Shown here: positions 18,658 through 61,510 of the stretch, piece by piece
How the letters are laid out: every line of letters begins with the position of its first letter
How positions within the stretch are numbered: position 1 is the first letter of the stretch
Assembly: GCA_042408215.1 (NCBI GenBank)
Contig: JAYFMW010000008.1
Coordinates: 96,001 to 160,000 of the forward strand
Origin: Microcoleus sp.
GTDB taxonomy: Bacteria > Cyanobacteriota > Cyanobacteriia > Cyanobacteriales > Microcoleaceae
DNA: 64,000 nucleotides
Reading direction: 5' to 3'
Notes under the pieces: generated by a model
Told to the model about the DNA's origin: nothing
The model's database searches: none
What the model saw: only the letters and a program-made list of their open reading frames with translations
Translations under genes and position numbers: made by a program

Positions 18658-20457
18658 ATGTTAATAACTGACAAACTGCTACTTTCCTATCAGCGATGTA
18701 ATCTCCGAGCATTTTTAGACACATGGGGAGATTGGAAACAACAAGATCCACCAAGCGACTTTCTGCTAAAATTGATGCGCGACAGCGCCACATATCAGCA
18801 GCAAGCTTTAGAAAACGAGACTTACCAACAACCATATTATCCTAGAGGGGATTGGGCGGCTGGGGCGGCGGCTACTTTGAGTTTAATGCAGCAAGGAGTC
18901 GATCGCATTTATCGAGGAGTGATTTGTCAAGGTGAATTAGGAAAAACCAATGATAAAACAGCTTCTATCTTAGGAATTGACGGTCAATATTTGCCAGACA
19001 TCGGCGAAATTCCCGAAACTCCAGTCTATCTTTCATCCTCCATTCTACACTCTTCCGAAATCACCCTCGTCAGCCGCCCCCATTTATTAATTAAACAGCC
19101 GGGAGATTCCAAATTTGGCGATTGGAGTTATGCGACTGCCGATATTTGGCTGAGTAAGCGACCAAAACTAGATTATCAAATTATCGCAGCTTTTCACGCG
19201 CAAGTGTTAGCTTCCGTGCAGGGAATAATGCCCGAAACAGCGTGGTTGATGCTGCGAAAAAAAGGACTTTGGGCGGTGAATCTGTACCAGCGAATGCCTC
19301 AGATGTTCGAGATTTTGGATGAGTGCATTGAGATGTTAGAAAATCGGAATAAACCGGAGGTTTTCATTTCCAGGCAAAAGTGCACTCTTTGCGGTTGGTA
19401 TACCGTTTGTCACGCAGAAGCTGAATCTATTAAACACCTGTCGCTGTTACCGGGAGTTACGGCTAAGCGATATGCTATACTAAAAGTTCTAGGATTGACC
19501 GATTTAGCATCTTTGGCTAATGCTAATTCCGATTTATTGGCGAGTTATCCTGAGTTTGTCGCAGGAGTGGCCGTCGATGTGGTGCAGCAAGCGCGATCGA
19601 CTTTGTTGAATCAGCCGTTTGTGCGAGAGGAAGGAAGTTCGGCAGCGGATTTTGTAGCGGATTTAACGGATGTCACGGATAGAGGTTCGGCAGCGGATTT
19701 AATGGATGTCACGGATAGAGGTTCGGCAGAGACAGCGGTTAATCAGTTTATCAGAATACCAGAAGTTGCAGGAAATAGTTTAGTAATAGCTAAAATTGAG
19801 TCTGTAAAGACTACAGAAAATAAATCTGCTAAACTTTCTATACCTGCGCCAATTCTCCGCCCGAAACCAATTCCGTATTCCCAATCAGTGTTTTTGCCGA
19901 TCGCACCCATCGAACTTTACTTTGACATTGAAGCCGAACCAGAATTAAACCTAGATTACCTCCACGGAGTCTTAGTCGTTGATAGGTACAATAAAACGGA
20001 AAAATTCCACGGATTTCTAGCAGAAAGTGCCGCAGAAGAAGGAGCGGCTTGGGAACAATTTTTAGAATTAATGTGGACTTATCCCATTGCTCCTATTTTC
20101 CACTTTTGCGACTACGAAGTCAAGACTTTTAAGCGATTGGCAAAACTTTACAACACTCCAGCATATCTGTGGAAACCTGTGCTCAAACGCTTTGTAGATA
20201 TCCACAAATATGTTACCCAAAAAGCGATTATGCCGGTAGAAAGTTATGCACTTAAACCGATCGCCCGCTGGCTGGGTTTTGAGTGGCGAGATGCTAAGGC
20301 TAATGGTGCTCAGTGTGTCTGCTGGTATGACGATTGGCTCAAAACGGGCGATCGATCGATCTTGGAGGCGATCGTCCGATACAATGAGGATGACTGTCGT
20401 GCTACTTATGTGGTTAAGGATTGGTTGACGAATTTTTTGCTGGATCATCAATCTTGA
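18658..20457 (+). CDS. TM0106-family RecB-like putative nuclease with RNase H-like C-terminal domain
   Basis: LLLSYQRC N-terminus, CTLCGWYTVC, LYFDIE, YALKPIA and YNEDDC motifs. Confidence 0.88.
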   Translation: MLITDKLLLSYQRCNLRAFLDTWGDWKQQDPPSDFLLKLMRDSATYQQQALENETYQQPYYPRGDWAAGAAATLSLMQQGVDRIYRGVICQGELGKTNDKTASILGIDGQYLPDIGEIPETPVYLSSSILHSSEITLVSRPHLLIKQPGDSKFGDWSYATADIWLSKRPKLDYQIIAAFHAQVLASVQGIMPETAWLMLRKKGLWAVNLYQRMPQMFEILDECIEMLENRNKPEVFISRQKCTLCGWYTVCHAEAESIKHLSLLPGVTAKRYAILKVLGLTDLASLANANSDLLASYPEFVAGVAVDVVQQARSTLLNQPFVREEGSSAADFVADLTDVTDRGSAADLMDVTDRGSAETAVNQFIRIPEVAGNSLVIAKIESVKTTENKSAKLSIPAPILRPKPIPYSQSVFLPIAPIELYFDIEAEPELNLDYLHGVLVVDRYNKTEKFHGFLAESAAEEGAAWEQFLELMWTYPIAPIFHFCDYEVKTFKRLAKLYNTPAYLWKPVLKRFVDIHKYVTQKAIMPVESYALKPIARWLGFEWRDAKANGAQCVCWYDDWLKTGDRSILEAIVRYNEDDCRATYVVKDWLTNFLLDHQS

Positions 20458-45700: not shown

Positions 45701-45988
45701 TTGATGGAAAATCTGCTGGAAAATCTGCTGGAAAATCCGATAAATACATATAAATATGGCAACATCACAACTCCGAAAAAATCAACAGAAATTTTAGCAG
45801 AAAAGCGTTCCTCCTATCAGACTGACAAGGATTTGAGCGATGTGCAAGAACCAATTACTAGCGCGCCGCCGGAAGTACGGCAAATTATTGAGCGGGTATT
45901 AGAAATTGAGAAAGATAAACTCTACATGAAATCTCCCCGCTATATCAGCGATGACATTTTGAAAATTATTAAGGAAGCGATTATATGA
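45701..45988 (+). CDS. Small dnd-associated protein (PbeB position)
   Basis: ATGA overlap with the ATPase; PEVRQIIERVLEIEKDKL. Confidence 0.7.
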   Translation: MMENLLENLLENPINTYKYGNITTPKKSTEILAEKRSSYQTDKDLSDVQEPITSAPPEVRQIIERVLEIEKDKLYMKSPRYISDDILKIIKEAII

Positions 45989-48051
45989 AGTTAATTTCAA
46001 TTATTCTGTGCAACTTTCGGCAATTTTACGGCAAAAGTCCCGAAATTAAGCTGGCGTGCGGCGAGCAAAATACTACAGTGATTCACGGAAATAACGGTGC
46101 TGGAAAAACTGCTTTGATGAATGCCTTTACGTGGGTACTTTACGGACAATTTAGCGCTGCTTTTGCTGCGACAGAGCAATTAGTAAACAAGCGCGCTCTG
46201 GCTGAGGCAGAAATGGGAAAAGCAGTAGCTTGTTGGGCTGAAATTGTGTTTGAACACGACAGCACTCGCTACAAAGCATATCGTGCTTGTCGCGCTTACA
46301 AAAATGAAAATACTGTAGAATATGGCGACAGCGAATTGTCACTGACTGTAGCCAAAGATGACGGCCGCTGGATGCCGACGGCGCAGCATCCTGATGATAT
46401 TATCGGACGGATTTTGCCGGAAAGTTTGCATAAATATTTCTTTTTTGATGGGGAACGAATCGAGCAAATTGTCCGCTATGACAAGAAGGCAGAAATTGCG
46501 GAAGCTACTAAGGAATTGCTGGGCGTAGAAGTATTGAACCGCTCGATCCGGCATTTATTAGATGCAAAAAAGTCTTTAGAAACCGATTTAAAAATAGTCG
46601 GAAATGCGGAAAGTAAGAAATTATTGACGGAACAAAATAAATGCGAACTAGAAATTGAAAAACTTTCCCTGCGGCAAGTCGAAATCGAGGGGGAGTTGGC
46701 AAGTCAAGGCGAGTTAAAAAGAGCAATTAGTGGTAGTTTGCTGGAACTTAGCGGTGCTGGGGATTTACAAAAGTTGCGAGACGAATTGGACAAGCAGAAA
46801 AGTTTATTTAAGCAACAAATTGTACAGGCTACAGATGCTCTGAAACGAGCAATTTCTATGCGGGGTTATGGGGTGTTTCTGTTGGATGCGGTGGCGGAAT
46901 TTCAAGTAATTTTTGAAGATTTGCGGGGAAAAGGCGAGTTGCTTTCGGGGATTAAAAGGCCGTTTCTCTCAGAGTTATTAGCGAGGGAAATGTGTATTTG
47001 CGGTGCGGAATTAGTGGAGGGTTCTGAAGCTCACGAAAATGTTAGCGGTTGGATGGATAAAGCGGGAGTTGGTGATGTGGAGGAAACGACTATTCGGATT
47101 AGCGATCGCGTGAATGAAATAGACAGGCAAATCGCTGATTTTTGGGAGGAAATTGACAGTCAGCAAGCTAATATTAAAAGCGGCAGAATCGAACTTTCTA
47201 GGGTGGAAAACCAGTTAGATGATATTCACAACAAGCTGCGAAATTTTCCAGACGGCGATGTCAGCGGCTTGCAAAAGCGCTTGGATGAAATTGAGGTAAC
47301 AATTGGCGATTTGCAACGGGAAACTGGTTCTAACCAGCAGCAAATTGAGAGTTTGAGCGCGCAGGTTGCGGGTTTAAATAAGCAAATTGACAAGCAGCAC
47401 ATGAATGAGGAAAGGCAAATATTGGTTCAGCGACGGATTGCTGCGACTCAGGATGCGATCGATCGCCTAATTGAAGTGCGATCGCGCTTGGAGAAACAGT
47501 TTTGTTCTCAGCTAGAAAGGCGAGTGCAGGATATTTTTAGTCAAATTTCTTTTACTCCTTATATTCCCAAGTTGAGCGATAAATACGAACTGACATTAGT
47601 AGAAAATACCTCGGGAAAAGAATCTTTGGTTGCTGCTTCTACGGGGGAAAATCAAATTCTCAGTTTGTCGTTTATTGGGGGAATTATTGAGGGCGTGCGG
47701 GAGTGGAGTCAAAAGAATACTTTGATGGGCCCCGATAGCAGTACGTTTCCCATAGTTATGGATTCTCCTTTTGGCAGTTTGGATGAAGTTTATCGCAAGC
47801 AAATTGCGAAAAAATTGCCGAAATTGGCGAATCAATTGGTGATTTTGGTAACAAAAACTCAGTGGCGGGGAGAAGTCGCGCAAGAGATGGAAAATTGCAC
47901 TGGGAGAGAATATGTACTTGTCTACAATTCTCCTAAACCAGATTGCGAAGAAGATGCGATCGAATTGGGCGGGATGCGCTATCCTTTAGTTAAGCACAGT
48001 CCGAATGAGTTTGAATATACAGAAATTGTAGAGGTGGATTATGGCTTCTAG
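45985..48051 (+). CDS. SMC/Rad50-like ABC ATPase (PbeC/DndD-like paralog)
   Basis: GNNGAGKT, FFFDGE, CICG hook, ASTGENQ and DSPFGSLD motifs. Confidence 0.88.
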   Translation: MKLISIILCNFRQFYGKSPEIKLACGEQNTTVIHGNNGAGKTALMNAFTWVLYGQFSAAFAATEQLVNKRALAEAEMGKAVACWAEIVFEHDSTRYKAYRACRAYKNENTVEYGDSELSLTVAKDDGRWMPTAQHPDDIIGRILPESLHKYFFFDGERIEQIVRYDKKAEIAEATKELLGVEVLNRSIRHLLDAKKSLETDLKIVGNAESKKLLTEQNKCELEIEKLSLRQVEIEGELASQGELKRAISGSLLELSGAGDLQKLRDELDKQKSLFKQQIVQATDALKRAISMRGYGVFLLDAVAEFQVIFEDLRGKGELLSGIKRPFLSELLAREMCICGAELVEGSEAHENVSGWMDKAGVGDVEETTIRISDRVNEIDRQIADFWEEIDSQQANIKSGRIELSRVENQLDDIHNKLRNFPDGDVSGLQKRLDEIEVTIGDLQRETGSNQQQIESLSAQVAGLNKQIDKQHMNEERQILVQRRIAATQDAIDRLIEVRSRLEKQFCSQLERRVQDIFSQISFTPYIPKLSDKYELTLVENTSGKESLVAASTGENQILSLSFIGGIIEGVREWSQKNTLMGPDSSTFPIVMDSPFGSLDEVYRKQIAKKLPKLANQLVILVTKTQWRGEVAQEMENCTGREYVLVYNSPKPDCEEDAIELGGMRYPLVKHSPNEFEYTEIVEVDYGF

Positions 48052-48697
48052 TTCGGTAATTACGCAGGTTTTGGAAACGGATATTTGGGTGAAAGCAACG
48101 TGGGAAGAATTTCTGGCATTTGCTGAGGATTCAACTTGGGAAAAGGGCAAGTTTTATTATTATGAACAACACATGAGGGTAGAAATGTCACCAGTAGGGC
48201 CATTACACGGACGTCAAAATTCGATTATTCCCTATGTAATCATTCTTTTTGCGACTTTCAGAAATATCCGAGTAGTTCAGTTTACTAATACCAGTTTTCG
48301 CAAAGCTGGTATTGGTGAGTTTCAGCCGGATTTAGCTTACTACATTGGTGCTGATTTGAGAGTTCCTCCTGATGATAGCAATTCTGTTGTTGATTTAAAT
48401 ATATACGATCCACCTAGTTTGGTAGTAGAAATTGGTGCATCTTCTTTTAATGATGATTTAGGTGGAAAACGGTTACTTTATGAAAGTGCAGGAATTCGCG
48501 AATATTGGGTAGATCGTGCGAATACGCGGGAGATTTTTGCCTTTGCGATTAATGGCAAAAGTAGCGGCAGAATTGAAAATTCTCTGGTTTTACCTGGGCT
48601 GGAAATAGCGTTAATTGAGGAGGCTTTGAATCGGAGTCTGACGGAAGATGATGGGGAAATTAATCGCTGGTTGATTCAAACTTTTAGTCAAGGTTAA
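48041..48697 (+). CDS. Uma2-family endonuclease
   Basis: ATWEEF, QPDLAYY, PPSLVVEI and GIREYW motifs. Confidence 0.9.
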   Translation: MASSSVITQVLETDIWVKATWEEFLAFAEDSTWEKGKFYYYEQHMRVEMSPVGPLHGRQNSIIPYVIILFATFRNIRVVQFTNTSFRKAGIGEFQPDLAYYIGADLRVPPDDSNSVVDLNIYDPPSLVVEIGASSFNDDLGGKRLLYESAGIREYWVDRANTREIFAFAINGKSSGRIENSLVLPGLEIALIEEALNRSLTEDDGEINRWLIQTFSQG

Positions 48698-48701
48698 AGG
48701 A

Positions 48702-49046
48702 GTGTTTGAGGTGGGGAAAGAGTATCATAAGTTGGTGCGCGATCGCATTCCTGAAATTATTCGTAAAAGTGGGAATGAATGCGAGGTGGTAATTTTGTCA
48801 GATGCAGAATACTGTCAAGCTTTGCGATTGAAATTGATGGAAGAAGCTGGGGAAGCTGCGGAGGCTAAGGGGGAAGATTTGGTGGCTGAATTGGCTGATT
48901 TGTATGAGGTGATAGATGCGCTGATGGCTAGTTATGGCATTTCGGGCGATCGCATTTTGAAAGCACAAGTCAAGCGCCGGGAAGAAAGAGGGGGTTTTGC
49001 ACAAAAAATTATGCTGTTGCGGACGGGAAGTAAAGGTGAAAGCTAG
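48702..49046 (+). CDS. MazG-like nucleoside triphosphate pyrophosphohydrolase
   Basis: KLVRDRIPEII, KLMEEAGE, ELADLYEV and ERGGF motifs. Confidence 0.88.
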   Translation: MFEVGKEYHKLVRDRIPEIIRKSGNECEVVILSDAEYCQALRLKLMEEAGEAAEAKGEDLVAELADLYEVIDALMASYGISGDRILKAQVKRREERGGFAQKIMLLRTGSKGES

Positions 49047-49097
49047 ATCCCCGATATTAACCAGTGTATAATAGTTATCAACTACATATTAATTGCA

Positions 49098-49568
49098 ATG
49101 GGTGCTAACAAAATTAGAATTGCTAAAGATAAAGCCGATTTAGTTAAATCATTAACTTTATCGGATAACAACACCGGCCCTTTCCAGACTTACGCCGATG
49201 TCATCGCCTTCGCCGCATCTTTGGGAAATAAGCGGAAAAAACGCTTACCTTTGGGGGAAGTTTCTAAACGAGAACCAGGGGCGATCGATGTTGACATTTT
49301 TGTGTCGAGGGGTTACGATATGGCGATTAAATTAATTGCGATCGCCGAAACTAAAAATCCTCACATTCTCTCCCATCTTGATGAAAAATTAGAATCTCAA
49401 CGCCTCCTGATTTTTGAAGAATATGCTAATGGCGGACTGGAAATTTTGCGAGAAGAATTGCGCGGAACAGCAGATTATACCGATCGACTTTTGTTATTTT
49501 TAATTACAGAAAGAGACAATCAACATCGGTCAAATGAAGAATTCGATTTAAGCAAGTTCTTATTCTGA
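49098..49568 (+). CDS. DNA phosphorothioation-associated protein 4 (PbeD-like)
   Basis: IRIAKDKADLV, FQTYADVIAFAASLG and FEEYANGGL motifs. Confidence 0.88.
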   Translation: MGANKIRIAKDKADLVKSLTLSDNNTGPFQTYADVIAFAASLGNKRKKRLPLGEVSKREPGAIDVDIFVSRGYDMAIKLIAIAETKNPHILSHLDEKLESQRLLIFEEYANGGLEILREELRGTADYTDRLLLFLITERDNQHRSNEEFDLSKFLF

Positions 49569-49581
49569 GTTAACTGGAATT

Positions 49582-50607
49582 ATGATTCACCGATACTTAA
49601 AACAAACTGTAATTGTTTTCGCTTACAGCTACTCAGCCTTCATTATCTGCTATTTAATTCTCCGACTGATATTTTGGGATCGGTTCTGGATTGTTGGCTT
49701 GATCGGCACTTTCACACCCTTAATTTTCTTGCCAATTTTACTGTTACCCATCCTAGCAATTTCAATTATTAAAAACCGCTGGTTCTCTATTATTTCATCA
49801 ATTGCTTGTATTTTGCTATTGAGTTGGCTGCACATCAAATACTTTTCTACCGAACCAACAAGCATCACAGGTTCGCAACCTAGCCTCAAAATTTTATCGC
49901 ATAACGTCGGTTGGTATACAACCCAGTCGCCAACTTTAGTTAAACTGATAAACCAACAACAACCAGACATTATATTTTTACAAGAAATCGTTCAGAAACA
50001 TACGAAAAGAGTTTTCACTTGCTTAAAAGCAGACTACCCCTATCAAATTGGTACTCCACCTGTAGGAATTCTGAGTAAATATCCAATTTTATCCAGCGAG
50101 ATATTGCACTTAGCCAATCATCGAGAAACGCAGCAGCGAGCAATTATTAAATTTAACCAGCAAGCAATAGTCATTTATAATATGCAAGCCACCGGGCCGT
50201 GGTTTAAAAAATATAAAATATTGCCTTTTATCAAAATTCCAGTTTACAAATATGCCAAACGCGCTCCCGAAATTAAAGATTTAGTAGAGCGAGTGCAGCA
50301 AGAAACTTGGCCAGTAATTGTCGCGGGCGATTTTAATATGACAGACGAAACTCAAGACTACTACAATGTGCAAAAAGTCATGCAAGATTCTTTCCGAAAA
50401 TCGGGATTTGGGTTTGGTTTTACCTGGCCTCACGGTTGGGAACTTAAGTTATTGTTGAAAAGATTAAACTGGAGATTGAACTATCCCGTTTGCCGAATTG
50501 ATTATATTTGGTATTCAAAGCATTGGGGTGCTAAATCGAGTTCGGTTTTACAAGCAACGGAGTCCGATCATTTGCCTGTAGCAGCAGAACTGATTTTGTT
50601 AAAATGA
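49582..50607 (+). CDS. Membrane-anchored endonuclease/exonuclease/phosphatase family protein
   Basis: N-terminal TMs; LQE, GDFN, RIDYI and SDHLPV motifs. Confidence 0.9.
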   Translation: MIHRYLKQTVIVFAYSYSAFIICYLILRLIFWDRFWIVGLIGTFTPLIFLPILLLPILAISIIKNRWFSIISSIACILLLSWLHIKYFSTEPTSITGSQPSLKILSHNVGWYTTQSPTLVKLINQQQPDIIFLQEIVQKHTKRVFTCLKADYPYQIGTPPVGILSKYPILSSEILHLANHRETQQRAIIKFNQQAIVIYNMQATGPWFKKYKILPFIKIPVYKYAKRAPEIKDLVERVQQETWPVIVAGDFNMTDETQDYYNVQKVMQDSFRKSGFGFGFTWPHGWELKLLLKRLNWRLNYPVCRIDYIWYSKHWGAKSSSVLQATESDHLPVAAELILLK

Positions 50608-50755
50608 AGCGGTATAATGTATCTAAATTGAGAGGTGAACTTTGGTGCGATCGCGATCTGTAGTAGTGTTCGATCGACAAAAATTGCTAAAGGCGATCGT
50701 ATAAATATGCAGTTTGCCTTGAGTTATATGTTAAGATAAGTATTAGGTGGAGTGA

Positions 50756-50953
50756 TTGACCCGAATCCCTACGGCTGCCCAGCTAGAGAGTTTATATCGC
50801 ATCTGTTATCAACTGACGTACACGATGCTTCAGCCTATACATCTTATTTGTGTTGACGATCGAACTCGTAACGTATACATATTGGCTGGGTATGATGAAG
50901 AGCTTGAGTTCCAAATTTTACCCAATGGGGAGTTTGCTGATGAGCCAAGTTAA
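50756..50953 (+). CDS. DUF6888-like small protein
   Basis: PTAAQL...PIHLICVDDRTRNVYILAG motif. Confidence 0.7.
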   Translation: MTRIPTAAQLESLYRICYQLTYTMLQPIHLICVDDRTRNVYILAGYDEELEFQILPNGEFADEPS

Positions 50954-51155
50954 CTATAACGCAATGTCGAATACTGAATTGAAACAGTATTTTCTTAAAC
51001 ATCGTGGAAATCGAGCCGCTTTTCAGGCGTACTTAGACAGAATCAATCAGCATCCGCTGAGGATTATTGCAAGTCCCGGCGATCCAGATTTTGATCGGAA
51101 AGTTCAAGCCGCAATTCGCCGCAAGTTAGAAGCGGCAAGAAATAGCAGCAGTTGA
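50940..51155 (+). CDS. DUF6887-like small protein (putative partner of the upstream gene)
   Basis: NYNAMSNTELKQYFLKHR...AFQAYLDR; ATG at 50940. Confidence 0.7.
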   Translation: MSQVNYNAMSNTELKQYFLKHRGNRAAFQAYLDRINQHPLRIIASPGDPDFDRKVQAAIRRKLEAARNSSS

Positions 51156-51331
51156 GTGAAGTATAGATATAGGGTAGGGACACGGCACTGCCGTGTCCTG
51201 TATTTCATCTGCTATATTCAATTATACAAAACCAATTTTTTCTTGCTTTATCAGTCTTCCTCGCTGGGGACTGTAGCCTTAAATCCCCGCAGATTTTAAT
51301 TCCTGAGTGATGCCACCACCAGCATGAAAAC

Positions 51332-52924
51332 TTAGCTAAGCATAGGCGGCAATCCTACTTCTTTCGGATCGACCAACTTGCCGCTAAAACTAATAGCTTG
51401 ATCCTCAAAAGTTCTCGCTTGGGCCACAGCTTGCCGCAAATGAGCTCGATCCATATCGTCCTGAATTCCCGCGACTAAATATACAATTAACTTCGTCGCC
51501 AAATCCTTTCCAGAAACTAGCATTCGCTTTTTGTTCGGATCGTACAAAATCCCGTACCACGCCGACTGAGGATTGTCCATATGGCTGAATCCTTCATCCA
51601 CATCGTATCTGCGAAGTTTATCGAAAGTTGATTTCAGCGAAACTTTCTTTCTAAATGTTAGAATGCCTAAAGCATTAGCTAAAGCAATTTGACCGACTGG
51701 ACGAAACAAAATATTGCCCTCGCCCCCTGGTTTCTCAAAACTAAATCGGCGTAATTCTGCTGTTTCTTCGCCGCTTTCAATTCTTTGATAGCTGGGCAAA
51801 GTTGCTAAATAATCGAACAATTTCTTAAACTCTTCAATGCCCTCTTTCAGTTCCTCATCTTCGGGACGCATGGGAATCAAACCTTTTTTTTCCGGCTTCC
51901 AATGGGGGAATTTGTATTCTAAATACCGTTCCGACATATCTTGCAGGGCTTGCAATGTTGTGAGAACAGTTGATTTGGCTGCGACTGTGGCGCTGTCCCA
52001 ATTGACGCGGGGATTTCTGTGATCTTGCTCTTTTAATAAGGGATGGGTGACGGCAATTTTTCGGGCGCAGATCGCAAATCCGTTATCCTCATTTAATAAT
52101 GCTAATTGGCCCTGACTCAGCGTCACGGCCATTAAGTTAACGTGCACAAAGATCGATCGCACCCGCCGTTGTGCTTGCTGCCGCGTTTCCCCAGCCACCA
52201 CCGCCGGAATAAACTCAATTCCGATTTTTTCGTGAGCTAAATTGTGTACTTCGTTGGGGTTAATTTGATACTCTTCGGCTAAATCGTCGAGGGTAATTGC
52301 AGCGCCGACAGCTTTTTTATTTTTGTTATATCTTTGCAGGATTCCGTTTTTAATTAAACTCATCAAACCTTGAACTCCCATCAGCCGGTGCTGGCCGTCT
52401 AAAGCAAAAATTGAAATTTTTTGAGAAACATTCAAAAGTCCTAAATTTTCGTTTTTATCAAAGGATGTGAATTCAGTGGCTGATTTAGTTGCTACTCCAT
52501 TTTTATCCCATTCATCGGCTAGAGGATTGTCTACCCACGGGGGACTGACTACTACTAAAACTGCGGGGAATTTGTGCGATTTTCGGGCTGCGAGATATTG
52601 AGTAAGGGCTGCTTGACGTGACCAATCTAAGGGGCGCTGGATGATTTCGTCGATGGTTGCGTCGTCCCGGACGATGTTGTTAGTTTGGAGGTCAAATTTT
52701 TGCCGGAAAAGTGGCATTTGTGAGGCGAAACGCACGCGGGAATCTAACCATTCTAGGGTGACTGAACCGATGTAGGCTTCGCTGTTTCCCATTTGGGTTT
52801 TTTGGACGAAAATGCGATCGTCCTTTCCTAAGTAATTATCTAATAACAGTGCGATTTCTTGGCGATCGCTATTTTCTTTTTCTAAAAGTTTGATAGCGAG
52901 GTCATCCGCTGGGTTGGTATTCAT
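51332..52924 (-). CDS. DGQHR-domain protein (DndB/ParB-like family)
   Basis: QRPLDW and ALDGQHR motifs; divergent from dndB. Confidence 0.9.
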   Translation of the reverse strand: MNTNPADDLAIKLLEKENSDRQEIALLLDNYLGKDDRIFVQKTQMGNSEAYIGSVTLEWLDSRVRFASQMPLFRQKFDLQTNNIVRDDATIDEIIQRPLDWSRQAALTQYLAARKSHKFPAVLVVVSPPWVDNPLADEWDKNGVATKSATEFTSFDKNENLGLLNVSQKISIFALDGQHRLMGVQGLMSLIKNGILQRYNKNKKAVGAAITLDDLAEEYQINPNEVHNLAHEKIGIEFIPAVVAGETRQQAQRRVRSIFVHVNLMAVTLSQGQLALLNEDNGFAICARKIAVTHPLLKEQDHRNPRVNWDSATVAAKSTVLTTLQALQDMSERYLEYKFPHWKPEKKGLIPMRPEDEELKEGIEEFKKLFDYLATLPSYQRIESGEETAELRRFSFEKPGGEGNILFRPVGQIALANALGILTFRKKVSLKSTFDKLRRYDVDEGFSHMDNPQSAWYGILYDPNKKRMLVSGKDLATKLIVYLVAGIQDDMDRAHLRQAVAQARTFEDQAISFSGKLVDPKEVGLPPMLS

Positions 52925-53162: not shown

Positions 53163-54274
53163 ATGTCTACTCCTTCTTTTGAATACATTTTGCCGGTCAT
53201 CCGGGGAATTCAAGCGGGCCGCGAATATTACGTTTCGATGTGCCCGGTGCGTTTTTTGCCGAAATTGTTCCCCTTAGAATCAGAAGATTTGCCGCCGGAA
53301 ATGCGGGCTATTCGCACTCTGAATCAAACTCGGATTCCTGAAATTGCTGACTATTTTGTGAGGAATCCTACAAGTTATACTTGTGGGGCGATCGCCGCTT
53401 CTATTGATGCGGATATTACGTTTGAAGCGGTGGGAAATGAGGCCCAGGAACGGAAAATTGGCCGCTTGCGGGTGCCGATGGATGCTAAGTTTACGATTAA
53501 TGATGGACAGCATCGCAGGGCGGCTTTTGAAATGGCTTTGAGGGAAAATCCGCAGTTGGGATATGAGACGGTGGCGCTGATTTTGTTTCTCGATATTGGG
53601 TTGGAGAAGTCGCAGCAAAAGTTTGCTGATTTGAATAGTTTTCAGGTGTCCTTTGGAAGCGTCGCTGAGTTTACTTTACAACCACCGGGACGATCGCGCC
53701 CGGTTGGTGAAGGCGGTGGTTAAGCAGGTTGAGGTTTTCCGCTGTTTGACTGAGATGGAGAGGGGGAGTTTGAATGGGCGATCGCACAAATTGTTTACGC
53801 TGAGTGCGATCGATCGTGCTATCATGGCTTTGCTATCGAATTTTCCGGGCGATGAAATGACAAACCGCCCTCATTCCCATCTCAAAAAAGGGAAAAAAGA
53901 GGAAGAACTTGCTCAAAAAATACAAGTTGCGGCTGCTTATTGGACTGCGGTTAGTAGTTTTCTGCTGGATTGGCAATTAGTTCTGCACAAGCAAGTTGCG
54001 GCGAGGGAAATACGGCTGGATTTTGTGCATTGTCGTAGTGTTGTGCTGGAGAGTTTGGGGGAAGTTGGGGCGGTTTTGCTGTCGGTTTTTCCTGAGAGTT
54101 GGGAGGAACGTTTGGTCTTTTTGCGGGAGGTTGATTGGTCGATTTCTAATCCTGATTGGGAAGGTGGGATTTTGTTGAGAGGGGATTTCTAAGTCGAGGG
54201 CTAGTGTTGGTTGGATGAGTGATTATTTGAAAGTTAGGTTGGGTTTGGTACTTGGCGAACTATGGAGCAAGTAA
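53163..54274 (+). pseudogene. dndB: DndB with two frameshifts (~53650 and ~54185)
   Basis: IRGIQAGREYY, INDGQHR and FADLN in frame 1; SLSLLYNHRD...VDWS in frame 2; ISKSRASV...LKVRLGL in frame 3. Confidence 0.88.
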
Positions 54275-54500
54275 CTCATCAATTCCCGGAGCTAGATCGG
54301 ACTGAGGAGGGTTATTGTCAGACATATAAGTTAATTAAATTTGTGTAGACACACAATTTTAGATCGCCAACCATATAAATGTACACTAATCAGGGATACT
54401 ATTTTGCGGTATGGGCAAACAACAAAAGAAAAAAATCAGGTTTGATCGAGCCTGACATTATATCGTAAAATATTAATATTGACAATAGGAGCTTTCAGAT

Positions 54501-56180
54501 ATGATACAAACTCAACAGATCTCATTATTCCCAAGTCGCACCGTTACCGAATTAATAGAAGATATAGAATTGCTAACTGAAGAAATTCAAGATTTATATT
54601 GTCTTGACGAAATTCCTTGGGTAATTGGATATAGCGGGGGAAAAGATTCAACGGCAGTATTACAGCTAATTTGGAATGCGATTGCTAAGATTCCACAGGA
54701 AAAACGGATCAAGAAAATTGATGTCATCACCACAGACACTCTAGTAGAAAATCCGATCGTATCTGCATGGGTTCGTAAGTCTATTAAGCAAATGAATGTT
54801 GCAGCCATAGAACAAGAAATGCCCATAAATACTCATGTGTTACAACCAGAGTGGACAGATACTTTTTGGGTAGGTTTGATTGGTAAAGGATACCCAGCAC
54901 CCAGAGGTAAGTTTCGCTGGTGTACCGATCGCCTAAAAATTTCTCCATCTAACCGTTTTATTCGTAATGTTATCCGAACTAGCGGGGAAACAATACTTGT
55001 ATTAGGGACTCGTAAAGCTGAAAGCACAAAGCGCGCTCATAGGATGAAAAAAATGGAAGCCCGACGGGTACGCGATCGCCTAAGCCCTAATATGAACTTA
55101 CCAAATTCTCTGGTTTATAGCCCTATTGAAGACTGGCGTGATGATGAAGTTTGGCTTTATCTAATGCAGTGGGACAATCCTTGGGGATACAGCAACAAAG
55201 ATTTGTTCGCTATGTACCGGGGTGCTAGTGCTGATAATGAATGTCCCCTAGTTGTCGATACTTCTACCCCTAGCTGTGGTAGTTCTCGTTTTGGATGTTG
55301 GGTTTGTACGATGGTAAGTCAGGACAAATCACTAACAGCGATGATTCAAAATGATGAAGAAAAAGAATGGTTGCAACCTCTCTTAGATTTTCGTGTAGAA
55401 TTGGATGTTGAAGATAGTCGCGATCGACGTGACTTTCGGCGACGCAATGGAAATGTTCAACTGTATGAGCGTAATTTAGAGGGTGAAATAGCTATTGAGC
55501 CTATTCCCGGCCCTTATAGTAAAGAAGCACGGGATTATTTACTGACTCGACTTCTTTCTGTTCAAACTGAAATTCGTTCTAAAGCACCTGAAGATATGCG
55601 CGACATCACTTTGATAAGCAACGAAGAACTTAGTGAAATCCGCCGAATTTGGCTGGAAGAAAGACACGAATTCGACGACAGTTTACCCCGCATTTACGAA
55701 GCTGTCACCGGTCAACCTTTTGCAGACAGCCGCCCCGCCGCCGAAAGAAAACTTCTCGGTAGCGACGAATGGACTGTGCTCGAAGAAATGTGCGACGACA
55801 AAATGCACCTGGAATTAATGGCAAAACTCCTAGACACAGAACGCCAATATTACACCAAACCCCGCCGTACTGGCATTTACGCCGATTTGGACAAATGCTT
55901 TGAAACCAGTTCGCGATCGAGAACTGAAGCAATTGGTAACGCCCACTATCAACGCAACTTAAAAACAGCGGTGGAAGCTGTTAAAGCAAATCCGACTGAG
56001 AATATTCAGCAAGTCAAAGAGGCGATCGGCAAAAGCAACAGTTCTGCAAAAGACGATACCGTTGATCTTGCCAAACTGAGAGAAGAACTTGAAAGTAGCA
56101 GCAACCAAAGCAGACAGCTATCTTGGGCTGACATCAAATATTCACCTCCCAATACAGGAGGGTCAAATAACAAAGATTAG
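54501..56180 (+). CDS. dndC: DNA phosphorothioation sulfurtransferase DndC
   Basis: GYSGGKDS, DTLVENP, RWCTDRLK and ECP...CGSSRFGCWVCT motifs. Confidence 0.96.
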   Translation: MIQTQQISLFPSRTVTELIEDIELLTEEIQDLYCLDEIPWVIGYSGGKDSTAVLQLIWNAIAKIPQEKRIKKIDVITTDTLVENPIVSAWVRKSIKQMNVAAIEQEMPINTHVLQPEWTDTFWVGLIGKGYPAPRGKFRWCTDRLKISPSNRFIRNVIRTSGETILVLGTRKAESTKRAHRMKKMEARRVRDRLSPNMNLPNSLVYSPIEDWRDDEVWLYLMQWDNPWGYSNKDLFAMYRGASADNECPLVVDTSTPSCGSSRFGCWVCTMVSQDKSLTAMIQNDEEKEWLQPLLDFRVELDVEDSRDRRDFRRRNGNVQLYERNLEGEIAIEPIPGPYSKEARDYLLTRLLSVQTEIRSKAPEDMRDITLISNEELSEIRRIWLEERHEFDDSLPRIYEAVTGQPFADSRPAAERKLLGSDEWTVLEEMCDDKMHLELMAKLLDTERQYYTKPRRTGIYADLDKCFETSSRSRTEAIGNAHYQRNLKTAVEAVKANPTENIQQVKEAIGKSNSSAKDDTVDLAKLREELESSSNQSRQLSWADIKYSPPNTGGSNNKD

Positions 56181-56308
56181 CACGCGCTAGCCTGCGGTTC
56201 AACCCGAAATTTGTTGACAACCACCCCAATCGATCGGATATAATGGGTTGTCAACTAACCGCAGCATTGCCCAACCCTCATCGTTTAAATTCCGAAATTT
56301 TTACGACC

Positions 56309-56872
56309 ATGATTAATCCTAATATTCCCCATCAGGATCTTACATACAGCATCATCGGCTGTGCAATGAGAGTACACCGGAGGACACAAAAAGGTTTAAG
56401 GGAAAAACATTACCAAAGAGACTTTGATGCAGAAATGATTGAATCCGGTTTAACAACAGAAATGGAGTATCCCAGACAAATCTATGACGGTCAAGTTTGG
56501 ATGGGAATCCTCTATCTAGACCATTGGGTGAATGAATGTATTGTAGTAGAGGATAAAGCCGTGAATTATCCAATGACCGATAAAGATAAAGCTCAAATAA
56601 TAGCTTACTTAGCAGCTACAGGAGCACAAGTAGGTTTATTTATAAACTTTGGACGCAGCAAATTAGAATATCACCGCATCCTCCCACCAAAATCTGTACA
56701 AGGTTGGCAGAAACACATTCAACAATACTTGTGGAGGCCGAAAACAAGTGGCAGGGGTTGGACAAGAGGAAGTGCAGGAACATACGAAGAAACAGATGCC
56801 GAACTCCCCTTACCTCCCAGCATTCGACCCCCGAACCAGGAGGAAGATTCAACCGATGTGATTGATTGGTAG
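56309..56872 (+). CDS. GxxExxY-family protein (PD-(D/E)XK nuclease fold)
   Basis: LTYSIIGCAMRVH...GLREKHY, LD..V..CIVVEDKA, AQIIAYL and GLFINFG motifs; ATG at 56309 preferred. Confidence 0.9.
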   Translation: MINPNIPHQDLTYSIIGCAMRVHRRTQKGLREKHYQRDFDAEMIESGLTTEMEYPRQIYDGQVWMGILYLDHWVNECIVVEDKAVNYPMTDKDKAQIIAYLAATGAQVGLFINFGRSKLEYHRILPPKSVQGWQKHIQQYLWRPKTSGRGWTRGSAGTYEETDAELPLPPSIRPPNQEEDSTDVIDW

Positions 56873-56875
56873 CAA

Positions 56876-57943
56876 GGGGGGGCGGTTAGCAACGGATTTT
56901 GTAACGGATGTAACGGATGATTAGTCGCTGATTACAAAATCCGCTGCTAACCGCCGCCCCCACCAACCACCCATCCGTTAAATCCGCTACCAAATCCGTT
57001 GCTAACCGCCGCCCCCACCAACCACCCATCCGTTAAATCCGCTACCAAATCCGTTGCTAACCGCCGCCCCCACCAACCACCCATCCGTTAAATCCGTTAC
57101 AAAATCCGCTGCTAACCACCCCCCCCACCAACCACCCATCCGTTAAATCCGCTACCAAATCCGTTGCTAACCGCCCCCACCAACCACCCATCCGTTAAAT
57201 CCGCTACCAAATCCGTTGCTAACCACCCCCCCCACCAACCACCCATCCGTTAAATCCGCTACCAAATCCGTTGCTAACCACCCCCCCCACCAACCACCCA
57301 TCCGTTAAATCCGCTACCAAATCCGTTGCTAACCGCCCCCCACCAACCACCCATCCGTTAAATCCGCTACCAAATCCGTTGCTAACCACCCCCCCCACCA
57401 ACCACCCATCCGTTAAATCCGCTACCAAATCCGTTGCTAACCGCCGCCCCCACCAACCACCCATCCGTTAAATCCGCTACCAAATCCGCTGCTAACCGCC
57501 GCCCCCACCAACCACCCATCCGTTAAATCCGCTACCAAATCCGTTGCTAACCGCCGCCCCCACCAACCACCCATCCGTTAAATCCGCTACCAAATCCGCT
57601 GCTAACCACCCCCCACCAACCACCCATCCGTTAAATCCGCTACCAAATCCGTTGCTAACCACCCCCCCCACCAACCACCCATCCGTTAAATCCGCTACCA
57701 AATCCGTTGCTAACCGCCCCCCCACCAACCACCCATCCGTTAAATCCGCTACCAAATCCGTTGCTAACCGCCCCCCCACCAACCACCCATCCGTTAAATC
57801 CGCTACCAAATCCGTTGCTAACCACCCCCCACCAACCACCCATCCGTTAAATCCGCTACCAAATCCGTTGCTAACCGCCCCCCACCAACCACCCATCCGT
57901 TAAATCCGCTACCAAATCCGTTGCTAACCGCCCCCCACCAACC
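56876..57943. repeat. Inverted repeat plus tandem array of 18 full 52-55-bp units
   Basis: Unit GCTAACC(G/A)CC-(G/C)n-CACCAACCACCCATCCGTTAAATCCGCTACCAAATCCG(T/C)T; GCTAACC at 19 positions from 56946 to 57923; inverted copy at 56876-56920. Confidence 0.97.
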
Positions 57944-57956
57944 AACAACATCTACA

Positions 57957-59954
57957 ATGCAATTTCTCGAACTCGTCCTCCAAAACTTCGGCCCCTATGC
58001 AGGCACACAAACCATCAATCTCCGCCCCGAAAAAGACGGCAATTCCTGCCCGATCATCCTATTTGGCGGCATGAATGGTGGCGGCAAAACCACCCTCATG
58101 GATGCCATTCGCCTCGCCCTCTACGGTGGCAGAGCTCAATGTTCCACCAGAGGCAATTTAAGCTACAGCGACTTCCTCAATCAATCAGTCAACCGCCACA
58201 CTCCACCCTTAGACGATACCCGCGTCGAATTAATATTTGAACAAGTCCAAGACGACAAATTAACCAAATTTAAAATAGTTAGATACTGGAAAAAAAACGA
58301 TATCAAAGACACCTTAAGCATTCTCATATACAGCGAAGTTGTCACCGATTGGTGGGCGGACAAAGCCATTAGCAACACCTGGGACGAATACATCGAAACC
58401 CTGCTACCAGTAGGCATATCCAACCTATTTCTATTTGACGGCGAACAAGTAAAAGAACTAGCCGAACTTGAAACCCCGCCAGAATTTGTAGTCGGGGCGA
58501 TTAAATCCCTTTTAGGCTTAGAATTAGCCGAACGCCTCGCCGTTGACTTAGAAATATTAGCCGGTCGCAAACGCAAAGAAATTGCCGGGAAAAAAGACTT
58601 AGCAGCCTTAGAAAAAATTGAAGAAACCTTCAAGGAAGTTACTGCTAAAAAAGACTTACAAATAGAAAAGAAAGGCAGTTGTCAAAACAAGTTAGACAAA
58701 GCTCAAAAAAATCAGCAACAAGCATCAGAAAAATTTATTTATGAAGGCGGGAAAATAGCAGCCGATCGCAGTTTACTAGACAAACAGTTAAACGACTACA
58801 AAACCGCTGCTGACAAATCCCGTGAAGCCATGATTCAACTAGCCTCAAACACACTACCGCTAGCCCTAATTTCCCCCCTACTAACCCAAGCCAAAACCCA
58901 AGCAGAAACAGAAGCCAGCCAGCAGCAAGCAAAAATCGCCCAAAATATTATCAAACAAAAAAGCGATCGCCTCCTCAACTACATCGCCGAAATCTCATTA
59001 AACCCCGAACAATTAGACAAAATACAAGACTTCATCCGCCAAGAAAATCAAGAACTAGAACAGCAAGCAGCCCTAGACACCCCGCCCTGGTTAGGCGCCG
59101 ACAATAACAGCATCCAGCAACTAGAAAACATCCTCAGCTACCAAATCAAAGCCCAGCAAACCACAGCCGCCGAACAAATAGAAAAACTCCAAAACATAGA
59201 AGCCGAAATCGACTTTACTGACAGACAGCTAGCCGCCGCCGCTTCCCCCGAAGCCTACGAGAAACTAGAATCAGAGGTTAAAAATGCCCAAAAAGCAGTC
59301 GCCAACGCAGCCGCAGACTTAGAATCAACCAACCGCCGCATCGAGGAATTAGACAGAGAATTAGCAAAAACCCAAAAAGAACTAGAAACCTACAGCAGCG
59401 AATACATCACTATCAGAAACAGCCAACACATCATCACCTCCATCGCCAAAGCCCAAGGCACCCTGAAACAGTTCAAAGAAAAACTCACCCTCAAAAAACT
59501 CAACAAACTCGAAATAGAAATCACCGATTGTTTCCGCTACCTTTTGCACAAAACCGACTTAGTGCACAGAGTAGCCATAGATACCCAAACCTTCAGCCTT
59601 TCCATCTACGATTCCGAAGGGAAACAAGTACCCAAACACCGACTTTCCGCAGGGGAAAAACAACTGCTGGCGATCGCATTTTTGTGGGGATTAGCCCGAG
59701 TATCCGGGAGACAACTACCAGTCGCGATCGACACTCCCCTGGGGCGCCTCGACTCATCCCACAGAAACAACCTAGTCGAACGCTATTTCCCCTCAGCCAG
59801 CCACCAAGTCATCCTGCTGTCAACAGATACCGAAATTGCCAAGACAGAATATGATAAGCTGCAAGAATTAGAGGCGATCGCCCACAGCTACATCCTCAAA
59901 TACGACTCCGCCAAACGCCAAACCACCGTCGAAACCGGTTATTTTTGGGAATAA
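57957..59954 (+). CDS. dndD: DNA sulfur modification ATPase DndD
   Basis: MQFLELVLQNFGPY start; GMNGGGKT, FLFDGE, LSAGEKQ, DTPLGRLD and LSTDTE motifs. Confidence 0.95.
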   Translation: MQFLELVLQNFGPYAGTQTINLRPEKDGNSCPIILFGGMNGGGKTTLMDAIRLALYGGRAQCSTRGNLSYSDFLNQSVNRHTPPLDDTRVELIFEQVQDDKLTKFKIVRYWKKNDIKDTLSILIYSEVVTDWWADKAISNTWDEYIETLLPVGISNLFLFDGEQVKELAELETPPEFVVGAIKSLLGLELAERLAVDLEILAGRKRKEIAGKKDLAALEKIEETFKEVTAKKDLQIEKKGSCQNKLDKAQKNQQQASEKFIYEGGKIAADRSLLDKQLNDYKTAADKSREAMIQLASNTLPLALISPLLTQAKTQAETEASQQQAKIAQNIIKQKSDRLLNYIAEISLNPEQLDKIQDFIRQENQELEQQAALDTPPWLGADNNSIQQLENILSYQIKAQQTTAAEQIEKLQNIEAEIDFTDRQLAAAASPEAYEKLESEVKNAQKAVANAAADLESTNRRIEELDRELAKTQKELETYSSEYITIRNSQHIITSIAKAQGTLKQFKEKLTLKKLNKLEIEITDCFRYLLHKTDLVHRVAIDTQTFSLSIYDSEGKQVPKHRLSAGEKQLLAIAFLWGLARVSGRQLPVAIDTPLGRLDSSHRNNLVERYFPSASHQVILLSTDTEIAKTEYDKLQELEAIAHSYILKYDSAKRQTTVETGYFWE

Positions 59955-59975
59955 AAATTCGCCCTAAAAAATAGG

Positions 59976-60119
59976 CGCAACCCCTTGACTTTTTCCTGGG
60001 GTTGCGGTAGTATATATAGAATAATGGGATGGTTGCGAAAATTTTATTTTTGCCACCATCCCATTATATAGGATAAATCCTCATATAATCACAATACCAG
60101 AAACCCCCGTACATATCAA
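59976..60119. promoter_or_regulatory. Convergent promoter pair flanking a hairpin between dndD and dndE
   Basis: + strand TTGACT-N17-TAGTAT (59985-60013); hairpin 60021-60068; - strand TTGATA-N17-TATTGT (60119-60091). Confidence 0.45.
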
Positions 60120-60239
60120 GCCCCCGCCGTGTAAAAAAATGTGAATTTTCGTCTCTTAACTTAGCCAGGAAACGCCGATCTAGAGGCTTTGCCTTCCAAA
60201 TATTAACAATAATAAAACATCTCAAAGAATTATAAACTC

Positions 60240-60641
60240 ATGGAACCACCAGTCGATCGCATCCGCCTCTCCCAAACAGGTAAAGACCAACTATCAAAAC
60301 TGAAACGATCGACCAAAATTGACCAGTGGAATATCCTCTGCCGCTGGGGTTTTTGTCGCTCGCTCGCCGAACCCAGCATCCCCTCTCCTGTACCGATTCC
60401 TAGCGACAGCAACGTCGAATTAAGTTGGGATGTTTTTGGCGGCGACATGGCCGATATCTTGATAATTGCTCTTAAGCAACGCTGCGATCAAGATAATTTA
60501 GGAACAGAAAAAGATACTCTGGCTAAACAGTTTCGCCTCCACTTGCACCGTGGTATCGGTTATTTAGCTGGCGATCCGAATCTTAAAAAAATAGAAAATT
60601 TAATTGCGATCGCCCTATCGCCGGAAAAATTAAGAAATTAA
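60240..60641 (+). CDS. dndE: DNA sulfur modification protein DndE
   Basis: IRLSQ..KDQL..LKR.T.I..WNILCRW and FRLHLHRGI motifs. Confidence 0.95.
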   Translation: MEPPVDRIRLSQTGKDQLSKLKRSTKIDQWNILCRWGFCRSLAEPSIPSPVPIPSDSNVELSWDVFGGDMADILIIALKQRCDQDNLGTEKDTLAKQFRLHLHRGIGYLAGDPNLKKIENLIAIALSPEKLRN

Positions 60642-60745
60642 ACGAACCGCTTTCATCCGCCCTCATCCGCCCTCATCTGCGGTTAAAATTCCCAAACCAA
60701 ATTAGCTATGATTAAACCAATTGTAAAGAATTATTTCAAACAGCC

Positions 60746-61510
60746 GTGAAACTCACCCGCATCGACCTCAACTCTTGGATCTTCCAAATTGGTGGCCAAA
60801 CTATCCTCGTCGATCCCTGGCTAGTCGATCCCCTCGTATTTTACGGTCAACCCTGGCTGTTCACCGCCTACCACAACACCCCTGTTGCTTTCACTCCAAC
60901 CACATTACCGCCGATCGACCTTTTGCTCATTTCCCAAGGATTAGACGATCACTGCCACAAACCCACACTCGAACGGCTCGATCGCACAATTCCTGCGATC
61001 GCCTCCCCCACCGCCGCCAAAGTCCTCAGCAGTTTAGGCTACTCCAATATCACATCTTTGGCAAATTGGCAAGAGTTTAATTATCAAGAAAAGTTACAAA
61101 TAACCGCCGTACCTGGAGCCGAAATCCAGCCCGGACAGGAAGAAAACGGCTATTTGCTTAAAGACTTAACCAGCGGCGAAACACTTTACTACGAACCGCA
61201 CTTGCCGCCATTAGAAAAAGTGAAACAGAAAATAGATACAGTAGACGTCGCGATCGCCCCCGTCATCGGTCAAATCTTCCCCTTCCTCGGACAAATCATC
61301 ATGGGCCCATCTCAAGCCCTCAGCCTCGCCCAAACCCTAAAACCTCGGTTTTTTGTACCTACAACCACGGGAGACATCCGAGCCACCGGCATTTTACCAA
61401 TGTTTGTGCGATCGATCGGCAGCATCCCCGAATTTCGCGATTTACTCGCCAAATCGGGACTTGACACCCAACTTCTCGAACCCGAACCCGGACAAACCCT
61501 CGATATTTGA
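60746..61510 (+). CDS. MBL-fold metallo-hydrolase
   Basis: ILVDPWL, SQGLDDHCH and YYEPH motifs. Confidence 0.88.
   Translation: MKLTRIDLNSWIFQIGGQTILVDPWLVDPLVFYGQPWLFTAYHNTPVAFTPTTLPPIDLLLISQGLDDHCHKPTLERLDRTIPAIASPTAAKVLSSLGYSNITSLANWQEFNYQEKLQITAVPGAEIQPGQEENGYLLKDLTSGETLYYEPHLPPLEKVKQKIDTVDVAIAPVIGQIFPFLGQIIMGPSQALSLAQTLKPRFFVPTTTGDIRATGILPMFVRSIGSIPEFRDLLAKSGLDTQLLEPEPGQTLDI

Follow-up and report, generated by a model that had tools for sequence, protein, structure and literature searches.

A predicted GxxExxY nuclease and its candidate repeat partner between dndC and dndD of Microcoleus

Between dndC and dndD in a Microcoleus genome lie a gene for a GxxExxY protein and, behind it, a tandem array of short repeat units; what joins a predicted nuclease to such a repeat, and do the two belong to the operon in which they sit? 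The locus was analysed within a window of 64,000 nucleotides (GenBank assembly GCA_042408215.1, contig JAYFMW010000008.1, positions 96,001 to 160,000), and positions below are those of the window. The reading that we favour, at a probability of roughly 0.55, is that the nuclease is domesticated and has cognate repeat arms, and that this pair works in the manner of the repetitive extragenic palindromic (REP) elements and the REP-associated tyrosine transposases (RAYT) without being a RAYT member.

Repeat motif and nuclease clade in homologous loci

The evidence that carries this reading comes from 160 homologous loci, 80 from genomes and 80 from metagenomes, with a few duplicate records included. 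The motif ATCCGYT had been fixed from the window beforehand, and a locus was counted when it held at least three occurrences within 300/350 bp of the gene. This was so for 20 of the 21 loci at 85% identity or more and for 100 of the 112 at 47-84% identity, the motif there reaching 15.6 per kb near the gene as against 0.5 per kb far from it. A preliminary description of the locus had expected enrichment of the motif beside GxxExxY genes; for the clade to which the protein of the window belongs, clade B, it is borne out at about 30-fold over distal DNA. Below 47% identity, ATCCGYT was found at 12 of 27 loci and ATTCGWG, a motif recognised post hoc, instead at another 12.

That repeat type should follow protein phylogeny had also been suggested, and it does. 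In a quick tree with support from the Shimodaira-Hasegawa-like approximate likelihood ratio test (159 proteins, 146 columns) all 119 rows with the B motif fall in one clade of 133 rows and all 13 with the C motif in another, the D, E and F motifs each having a clade of their own; six unlabelled rows are a subclade that has switched to ATTCGTT. Residue 21 of the nuclease is mostly arginine or lysine with ATCCGYT and aspartate or glutamate with the ATTCG motifs, with exceptions. We regard it as probable, judging from sequence, that nuclease and repeat are partners, the arms being the sites of the protein.

The arrangement around the gene is recurrent. Among 91 loci with full flanks, reversed units lie upstream in 77 and forward units downstream in 76, and facing doublets were seen upstream in 50 and downstream in 26; the Microcoleus loci are without the upstream arm. 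The neighbouring genes vary, 113 loci falling into 68 contexts (18 for the 33 cyanobacterial loci), and the cassette must therefore have moved often over the long term. Further GxxExxY clades with motifs of their own were also noticed (L236-L243): ATCCGTGT with a 178-aa frame in Microcoleus, and ATCATAG in other families.

The locus between dndC and dndD

The features of the locus are collected in Table 1. The interval separating dndC from dndD measures 1776 bp, in agreement with the insert of about 1.77 kb first described, and holds the GxxExxY gene, a reversed unit and direct units. The closest named relatives for the region are Microcoleus and Tychonema.

Table 1. Positions of the nuclease gene, the repeat units and neighbouring features in the window
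Feature	Position	Strand	Remarks
dndC	54501..56180	+	TIGR03183, 693.6 bits, above cut-off; left neighbour
Imperfect inverted repeat	56192..56264	.	TTGACA (56214) and TATAAT (56239) hexamers 19 nt apart; kept in relatives
GxxExxY / PDDEXK_3 gene, clade B	56309..56872	+	187 aa; TIGR04256, 85.7 bits (cut-off 35); PF13366, 75.9 bits (cut-off 22)
Reversed repeat arm	56876..56930	-	Directly 3' of the nuclease stop; pairs with any direct unit
Partial direct unit	56933..56969	+	Last core, tail and C-rich linker
18 tandem direct units, 52-55 bp	56970..57946	+	Triple ATCCGYT arm, locus-specific tail, C-rich linker
dndD	57957..59954	+	TIGR03185, 645.5 bits, above cut-off; right neighbour
Dispersed copy, genome-wide tail type	19637..19729	-	In frame within TM0106-family RecB-like gene, 18658-20457

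Membership of the GxxExxY / PDDEXK_3 family is given by hidden Markov model scores that exceed both curated cut-offs. The gene most likely starts at 56309, since homologues begin there, and an ATG at 56243 is unconserved among relatives. In 51 aligned homologues E32, D71, E81, K83 and Q96 are invariant and Y100 nearly so; we take this E / D / ExK / QxxxY layout to be that of RecB- and Cas4-like nucleases. A structure model (mean predicted local distance difference test score 86.5) matches the PD-(D/E)XK fold, with Cas4 (SSO0001, 4ic1), lambda exonuclease and the Hjc resolvase as best matches (E 1e-4; Z 8.2, root mean square deviation 4.1, 115 residues aligned). The catalytic core is common to all of these, but identity is 12-20%, the Z score is middling, and fold alone does not equal activity; the gene is predicted to encode a small RecB/Cas4-like PD-(D/E)XK nuclease. 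The ratio of non-synonymous to synonymous substitution rates comes to 0.20 in comparison with 29 orthologues and to 0.16 for 435 pairs, and by this measure the gene is intact and kept by purifying selection. An orthologue, always single, is present in 34 of 72 sampled congeners.

The genome has one GxxExxY gene of clade B. A second GxxExxY gene (L001, G000:C7:181920-185264), with 31% identity to the clade-B protein, is framed by inverted CTCTGCG repeats with a 9-bp period and then by several tandem 172-bp doublet units, and its motif has 423 matches genome-wide. A weak third PF13366 match was rejected as a GxxExxY gene; it lies in a protein, ParA-like by eye, with an N-terminal nuclease-like part. 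In the survey of Steczkiewicz et al. (2012, PMC3424549), as far as its accessible text goes, PF13366/PDDEXK_3 is listed with function 'Unknown' and multiple transfers.

A reversed repeat facing 18 direct units with three cores each had been described, and this stands: the units start at 56970 and so on to 57892, each has three ATCCG cores at spacings of 9 and 12 bp, and Tandem Repeats Finder gave 18.7 copies with 95% matches. The reversed unit now ends at 56930 and the partial unit at 56933-56969 is added. As had been said, there are no unique spacers; C-run length and one T/C site are not, however, the sole variation, as the units also differ by a few substitutions and unit 3 has two further variant sites. 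At least nine variants of the unit occur, and their order is not periodic; homopolymer errors could account for part of the C6-C8 length differences. No short-read contig spans the array. In two DNA runs of close strains its pieces reach about 2-5 times the depth of the flanks, and the contigs of such strains show an array of several units, whose exact count is beyond short-read contigs. Contigs from an RNA library cover the nuclease gene and one array piece, but are uninformative on level, strand and ends, and DNA carry-over is possible. The reversed arm is predicted to form a DNA hairpin of -45.7 kcal/mol (z -9.5), and with the direct units a strong RNA hairpin 5' of dndD of -77.5 kcal/mol. 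This arm is kept after the nuclease stop in 30 of 30 orthologous loci.

The inverted repeat ahead of the nuclease gene occupies the place of the upstream arm known from distant relatives and, from its sequence, is a possible promoter or operator of the gene. A scan for promoters and terminators gave 3 and 1 sites, the same as shuffled sequences, and did not report the TTGACA/TATAAT pair, whose spacing is too long. As a conserved RNA structure the repeat showed covariation of about zero (21 rows, with L027 in the wrong orientation), and Rfam gave no match near gathering score within 54000-61000.

Elsewhere in the operon, dndB (53163-54192) is read as two open reading frames (ORFs), having one base more near 53648 than the closest relative does, and is intact (362-379 aa) in five of five relatives checked; the split is either a real inactivation of the operon regulator or a sequencing error. 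Upstream (45985-52924) lie genes for a DndD-like ATPase, a Uma2 nuclease, dnd-associated protein 4 and a DGQHR-domain protein. The spacer between dndD and dndE (59955-60239) holds two inverted repeats that overlap a TTGAC...TATA-like element and are kept in several relatives.

Dispersed arms and the dnd junction in relatives

The repeat is by no means confined to the dnd locus. Across the genome its core, TCCGYT-N4-AATCCGYTG, has 165 copies at 110 loci, where an order-3 Markov model leads one to expect 0.07; 88 of the 110 are single units and the remainder arrays, those elsewhere having up to 10 units (arrays of 10 and 6 were seen). All 72 sampled congeners have the core; of 48 other genomes of the order, 2 do, with 1-2 copies each. 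The 19 copies at the dnd locus have a private tail and all others end in GCCGAAC; this latter tail also occurs at the dnd locus in four relatives, and locus and dispersed copies therefore exchange sequence.

The dispersed arms are polar and well conserved. On a crude map of ORFs of at least 100 aa, from which intergenic loci were assigned, it is the tail that comes to within 40 nt of the start or stop of a gene in 53 of 76 such loci, and the head in 6 of 76; the tail-outward bias of the B arm is weak for A arms (37 vs 26 of 252) and D arms (13 vs 8 of 40). Tail positions are identical in 106-107 of 108 arms, and the arms are more conserved than their surroundings. On the head side of 24 of 108 arms there is a same-strand heptamer tandem (2.9 expected), and 28 of 108 have a CTTCC-like pentamer on both sides, which may be a target-site duplication or merely the host tract. 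For three other sites of the genome, 2 of 24, 7 of 25 and 2 of 23 orthologous spacers have the arm, the genome itself included; in the rest its slot is taken by pure heptamer tracts, by a variant or by an arm from another family. REPIN-like doublets (two REP arms in opposite orientation) were ruled out genome-wide, 129 of 131 clusters having a single orientation.

One of the two clusters with both orientations (G000:C17, L274:540-1040) has a reversed and a forward B arm bracketing an ORF for an 89-aa membrane protein, in what is, by eye, presumably a kdp operon. Spacers of Microcoleus (L282-L356) are patchworks in which inverted heptamer arms from several families take one another's place between close relatives. 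The copy at 19637-19729 is missing in 4 of 30 orthologues, 5 have an E-type arm there, and 29 of 30 keep the frame; among relatives this linker of the TM0106-family gene accepts in-frame B arms, E arms and heptamer tracts.

At the dnd junction itself, the nuclease gene sits 3' of dndC in all 30 congener loci examined. In 24 closed orthologous loci there are 157-373 bp with 1-5 forward units before dndD, compared to 1084 bp in the window. Two relatives have amplified the reversed arm instead of the forward one, and in 5 of 29 relatives the contig breaks off within the repeats, in one case past 8 reversed units; because of such breaks the closed loci favour short arrays. Outside the Microcoleus group, 7 of 139 loci, in Crinalium, Limnoraphis and Lyngbya, have the same dndC-dndD position. 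Since the junction in relatives holds 1-5 units, a transposase with its own repeats or short hairpins, the 18 units are read, from these sequences, as a strain-level expansion.

Among 38 congeners that lack the gene, dndC was found in 34 and the junction was read in 30, of which 13 hold an IS200-family Y1 TnpA accompanied by repeats of its own, 11 a 120-bp hairpin and 3 a short spacer, 3 having no dndD; one further genome retains a broken remnant of the nuclease gene. An empty site in sister strains had been looked forward to, but no clean one was found among the junctions read. The TnpA matches NF033573 with 87.7 bits and the RAYT model with 24.6, under its cut-off of 80. It is a protein of 150 aa, 97-99% identical among strains (L034-L038, L040, L044, L046, L047, L052, L053, L055, L060), flanked by long tandem hairpin repeats, and behaves RAYT-like. 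On a dndC tree, a single gene with segments of unequal length, junction states change 23 times in 59 rows against 26.4 when shuffled (13 of 300 shuffles as low), as would be expected if junction alleles were swapped by homologous recombination among species. A second GxxExxY clade, with a frame of about 131 aa and inverted ATCTGCG-type triple repeats on either side, was seen at the dndD-dndE junction in 9 of 12 loci, partly chosen for this feature (L224-L231, L235); it is missing from the window.

The nuclease, the repeat and the dnd operon

Does the nuclease spread the repeat? Among congeners the median is 76 copies per genome with the gene (n=35) and 27 without (n=38; p 2.4e-5, kin not being independent). 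The clade-B nuclease was found in only 5 of 301 genomes of the class, and one carrier outside the genus has 148 copies of a local variant, compared to 15 in its control. Strict co-occurrence of gene and repeat was not found across cyanobacteria. To the question raised earlier, whether gene-less genomes carry the repeat equally, the answer is that they do in presence but, within the genus, not in median number.

Several points weigh against a nuclease that recognises and spreads the repeat. The C, D, E and F motifs were read off their loci after inspection, and the tree in which they sort is a quick one; the idea of one residue per motif base was dropped, as no single residue cleanly tracks a base of the motif. 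The dnd-resident loci form one clade of 15 rows (support 80), with one non-dnd row included. All 38 gene-less congeners carry the repeat, at 1-103 copies, so that the ranges overlap, and two of 297 genomes outside the genus (G146 and G245) have 77 copies each with no PF13366 gene found. A second carrier outside the genus has 17 copies, not above gene-less congeners (26-28), and a third has 1. Moreover, one slot may hold a B arm, an E-type arm or pure heptamers, and general recombination could suffice for this without the nuclease. Recent gene loss or unassembled genes could lie behind G146 and G245, and recent arrival of the gene behind the repeat-poor carriers. The copies in G146 and G245 (L360-L371) are triple ATCCGYT arms, many as facing doublets. 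Dispersal driven by the nuclease is what we lean towards, if only slightly.

The likeness to known systems is partial. RAYT genes are single-copy and vertical, with abundant flanking 16-mers (Bertels et al. 2017, PMC5581495); REP doublets are the replicating unit (Bertels and Rainey 2011, PMC3116915); and REPtrons, TIRtrons and in-gene insertions have been reported (Di Nocera et al. 2013, PMC3733652), each source being drawn on in its accessible part. Shared with RAYT/REP are a small, long-resident, single-copy gene, a flanking repeat abundant genome-wide (165 copies for one clade-B gene, with no gene duplication), clade-specific repeat type, tandem clusters and occasional in-frame insertions; selection is purifying, as for RAYT genes, and junction alleles are nonetheless shuffled among species. 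The pair is not a member of the RAYT/REPIN class on two counts, enzyme and doublets: the protein matches only PF13366/TIGR04256, a PD-(D/E)XK enzyme rather than a Y1 HUH transposase, and the dispersed copies have one orientation, doublets being seen beside the nuclease gene and in G146 and G245. The unit, unlike REP or REPIN, is also a non-palindromic triple of a 7-mer. Measured against insertion sequences and miniature inverted-repeat transposable elements, there is one gene copy per genome, no clean empty site, and the pentamers flanking 28 of 108 arms. The selfish RAYT/REP(IN)-like module first proposed is thus upheld in motif enrichment, clade tracking, genome-wide dispersal and the company of a Y1 TnpA with its own repeats at the same junction (13 of 30). 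It is not upheld as a recent insertion, given the same junction in Limnoraphis, Lyngbya and Crinalium and the purifying selection, nor in a REPIN likeness of the dispersed single arms.

Short dispersed repeats of cyanobacteria, SDR1-8 of 21-27 nt, were reportedly described by Elhai and colleagues in 2008 as often lying in tandem repeats and being present or absent at orthologous sites; spread by recombination is said to have been proposed, with the mobilising protein unknown. In these features the arm is similarly short, dispersed, set within tandem repeats and polymorphic at orthologous sites, and by this analogy the repeat may be related to an SDR-type family; the difference is that a candidate partner protein is identified here by its flanking association. 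In the literature searched, which left subscription journals and supplements outside its scope, no description of a link between GxxExxY proteins and repeats was found.

The arms might instead be real recognition sites or cassette ends, spread and grown in tandem by host recombination or slippage among heptamer tracts, with the nuclease doing another job such as trimming branched or hairpin DNA at repeats. Such a view draws on the repeat-bearing gene-less genomes, near and distant, the same-strand heptamer tandems, the swapping of arm families in one slot and the presence of Holliday-junction resolvases and exonucleases among the fold neighbours. We nevertheless hold it to be rather unlikely, since arms are conserved above their surroundings, copies are more numerous where the gene is present, and the tracking of motif with protein clade across phyla would need lasting selection for recognition. 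A different concern is that the array is real but its 18-unit length has been inflated by assembly, as the short arrays of closed relatives and the lack of any sequence record spanning it could indicate; with at least nine variants in non-periodic order, arrays of 10 and 6 units elsewhere in the genome, and relatives' contigs that break in repeats, this is improbable.

Does the pair then serve the operon, the nuclease acting for the phosphorothioate (Dnd) system as an effector of restriction or suicide, and the array tuning dndDE or serving as a decoy? A stable place inside dndBCDE across several genera and the strong RNA hairpin 5' of dndD speak for this, as do the varied nucleases, including standalone restriction endonuclease domains, reported in Dnd neighbourhoods (PMC10853773, whose accessible text makes no mention of PDDEXK or cyanobacteria). 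Linkage to dnd is, however, not family-wide: the 7 of 139 loci outside the Microcoleus group that lie in the operon all belong to one clade, and PADLOC gave no defence-model match for the nuclease. Moreover, in 27 of the 30 gene-less relatives examined dndC leads on to dndD or to the TnpA module, and unit number ranges from 1 to 18. Such an effector is quite improbable, and the RNA or decoy array offered earlier as an alternative is unsupported, relatives having 1-5 units or none. It is more improbable still that transcription and processing of the array yield small RNAs by which the nuclease is guided or activated, as in clustered regularly interspaced short palindromic repeat (CRISPR) or tandem interspaced guide RNA (TIGR) systems. 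The regular units adjoin a Cas4-like fold, and RNA-library contigs lie over the gene and one array piece (their level, strand and ends not being readable), but there are no unique spacers, as a CRISPR or TIGR-type guide array would have, few units in the 24 closed relatives, the opposite arm amplified in two others and no Rfam match; furthermore, the unit is dispersed as single copies, and even within a gene, in frame.

With a domesticated nuclease and cognate arms as the favoured reading, the course of events may be pictured as follows. The DNA element of the nuclease would be the polar arm of three ATCCGYT units. From the comparison of loci, a cassette of reversed arm, gene and forward arm would have moved among many short intergenic gaps over a long time. 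One copy may then have settled between dndC and dndD in an ancestor of Microcoleus, Limnoraphis, Lyngbya and Crinalium, as the tree weakly suggests; the Microcoleus copy would have lost its upstream arm and persisted, single and under selection, like RAYT genes. Arms without the gene are gained and lost at more than 100 other sites, for the most part singly and inside CTTCCTT-type heptamer tracts; most likely the nuclease would bind the arm and cut beside it, and host recombination would copy the arm into a similar tract. The 18-unit array has the pattern of a strain-level tandem amplification of arm and linker, as by slippage or unequal exchange, and without spacers would not need to have a function. 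The dnd operon is best explained as a landing site rather than a partner.

Such arrays should not be taken for guide-RNA arrays or for parts of a host defence operon. The orphan family PF13366 gains a concrete, clade-specific candidate substrate, and the very short mobile repeats filling the spacers of cyanobacteria receive a candidate driver. Microcoleus provides a natural experiment, with carriers and non-carriers, several nuclease clades and motifs, and an IS200-type module at the same junction. More tentatively, and with the odds somewhat against it, GxxExxY proteins at large may be the missing mobilisers of very short non-palindromic repeats, each clade recognising its own triple-motif arm, cutting beside it and having it recombined into heptamer tracts. 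If true, this would be a transposase-free, homing-like route of repeat spread; filamentous cyanobacteria would hold several nuclease-repeat pairs competing with HUH-transposase pairs for operon junctions, and such pairs would continually rewrite intergenic spacers and protein linkers.

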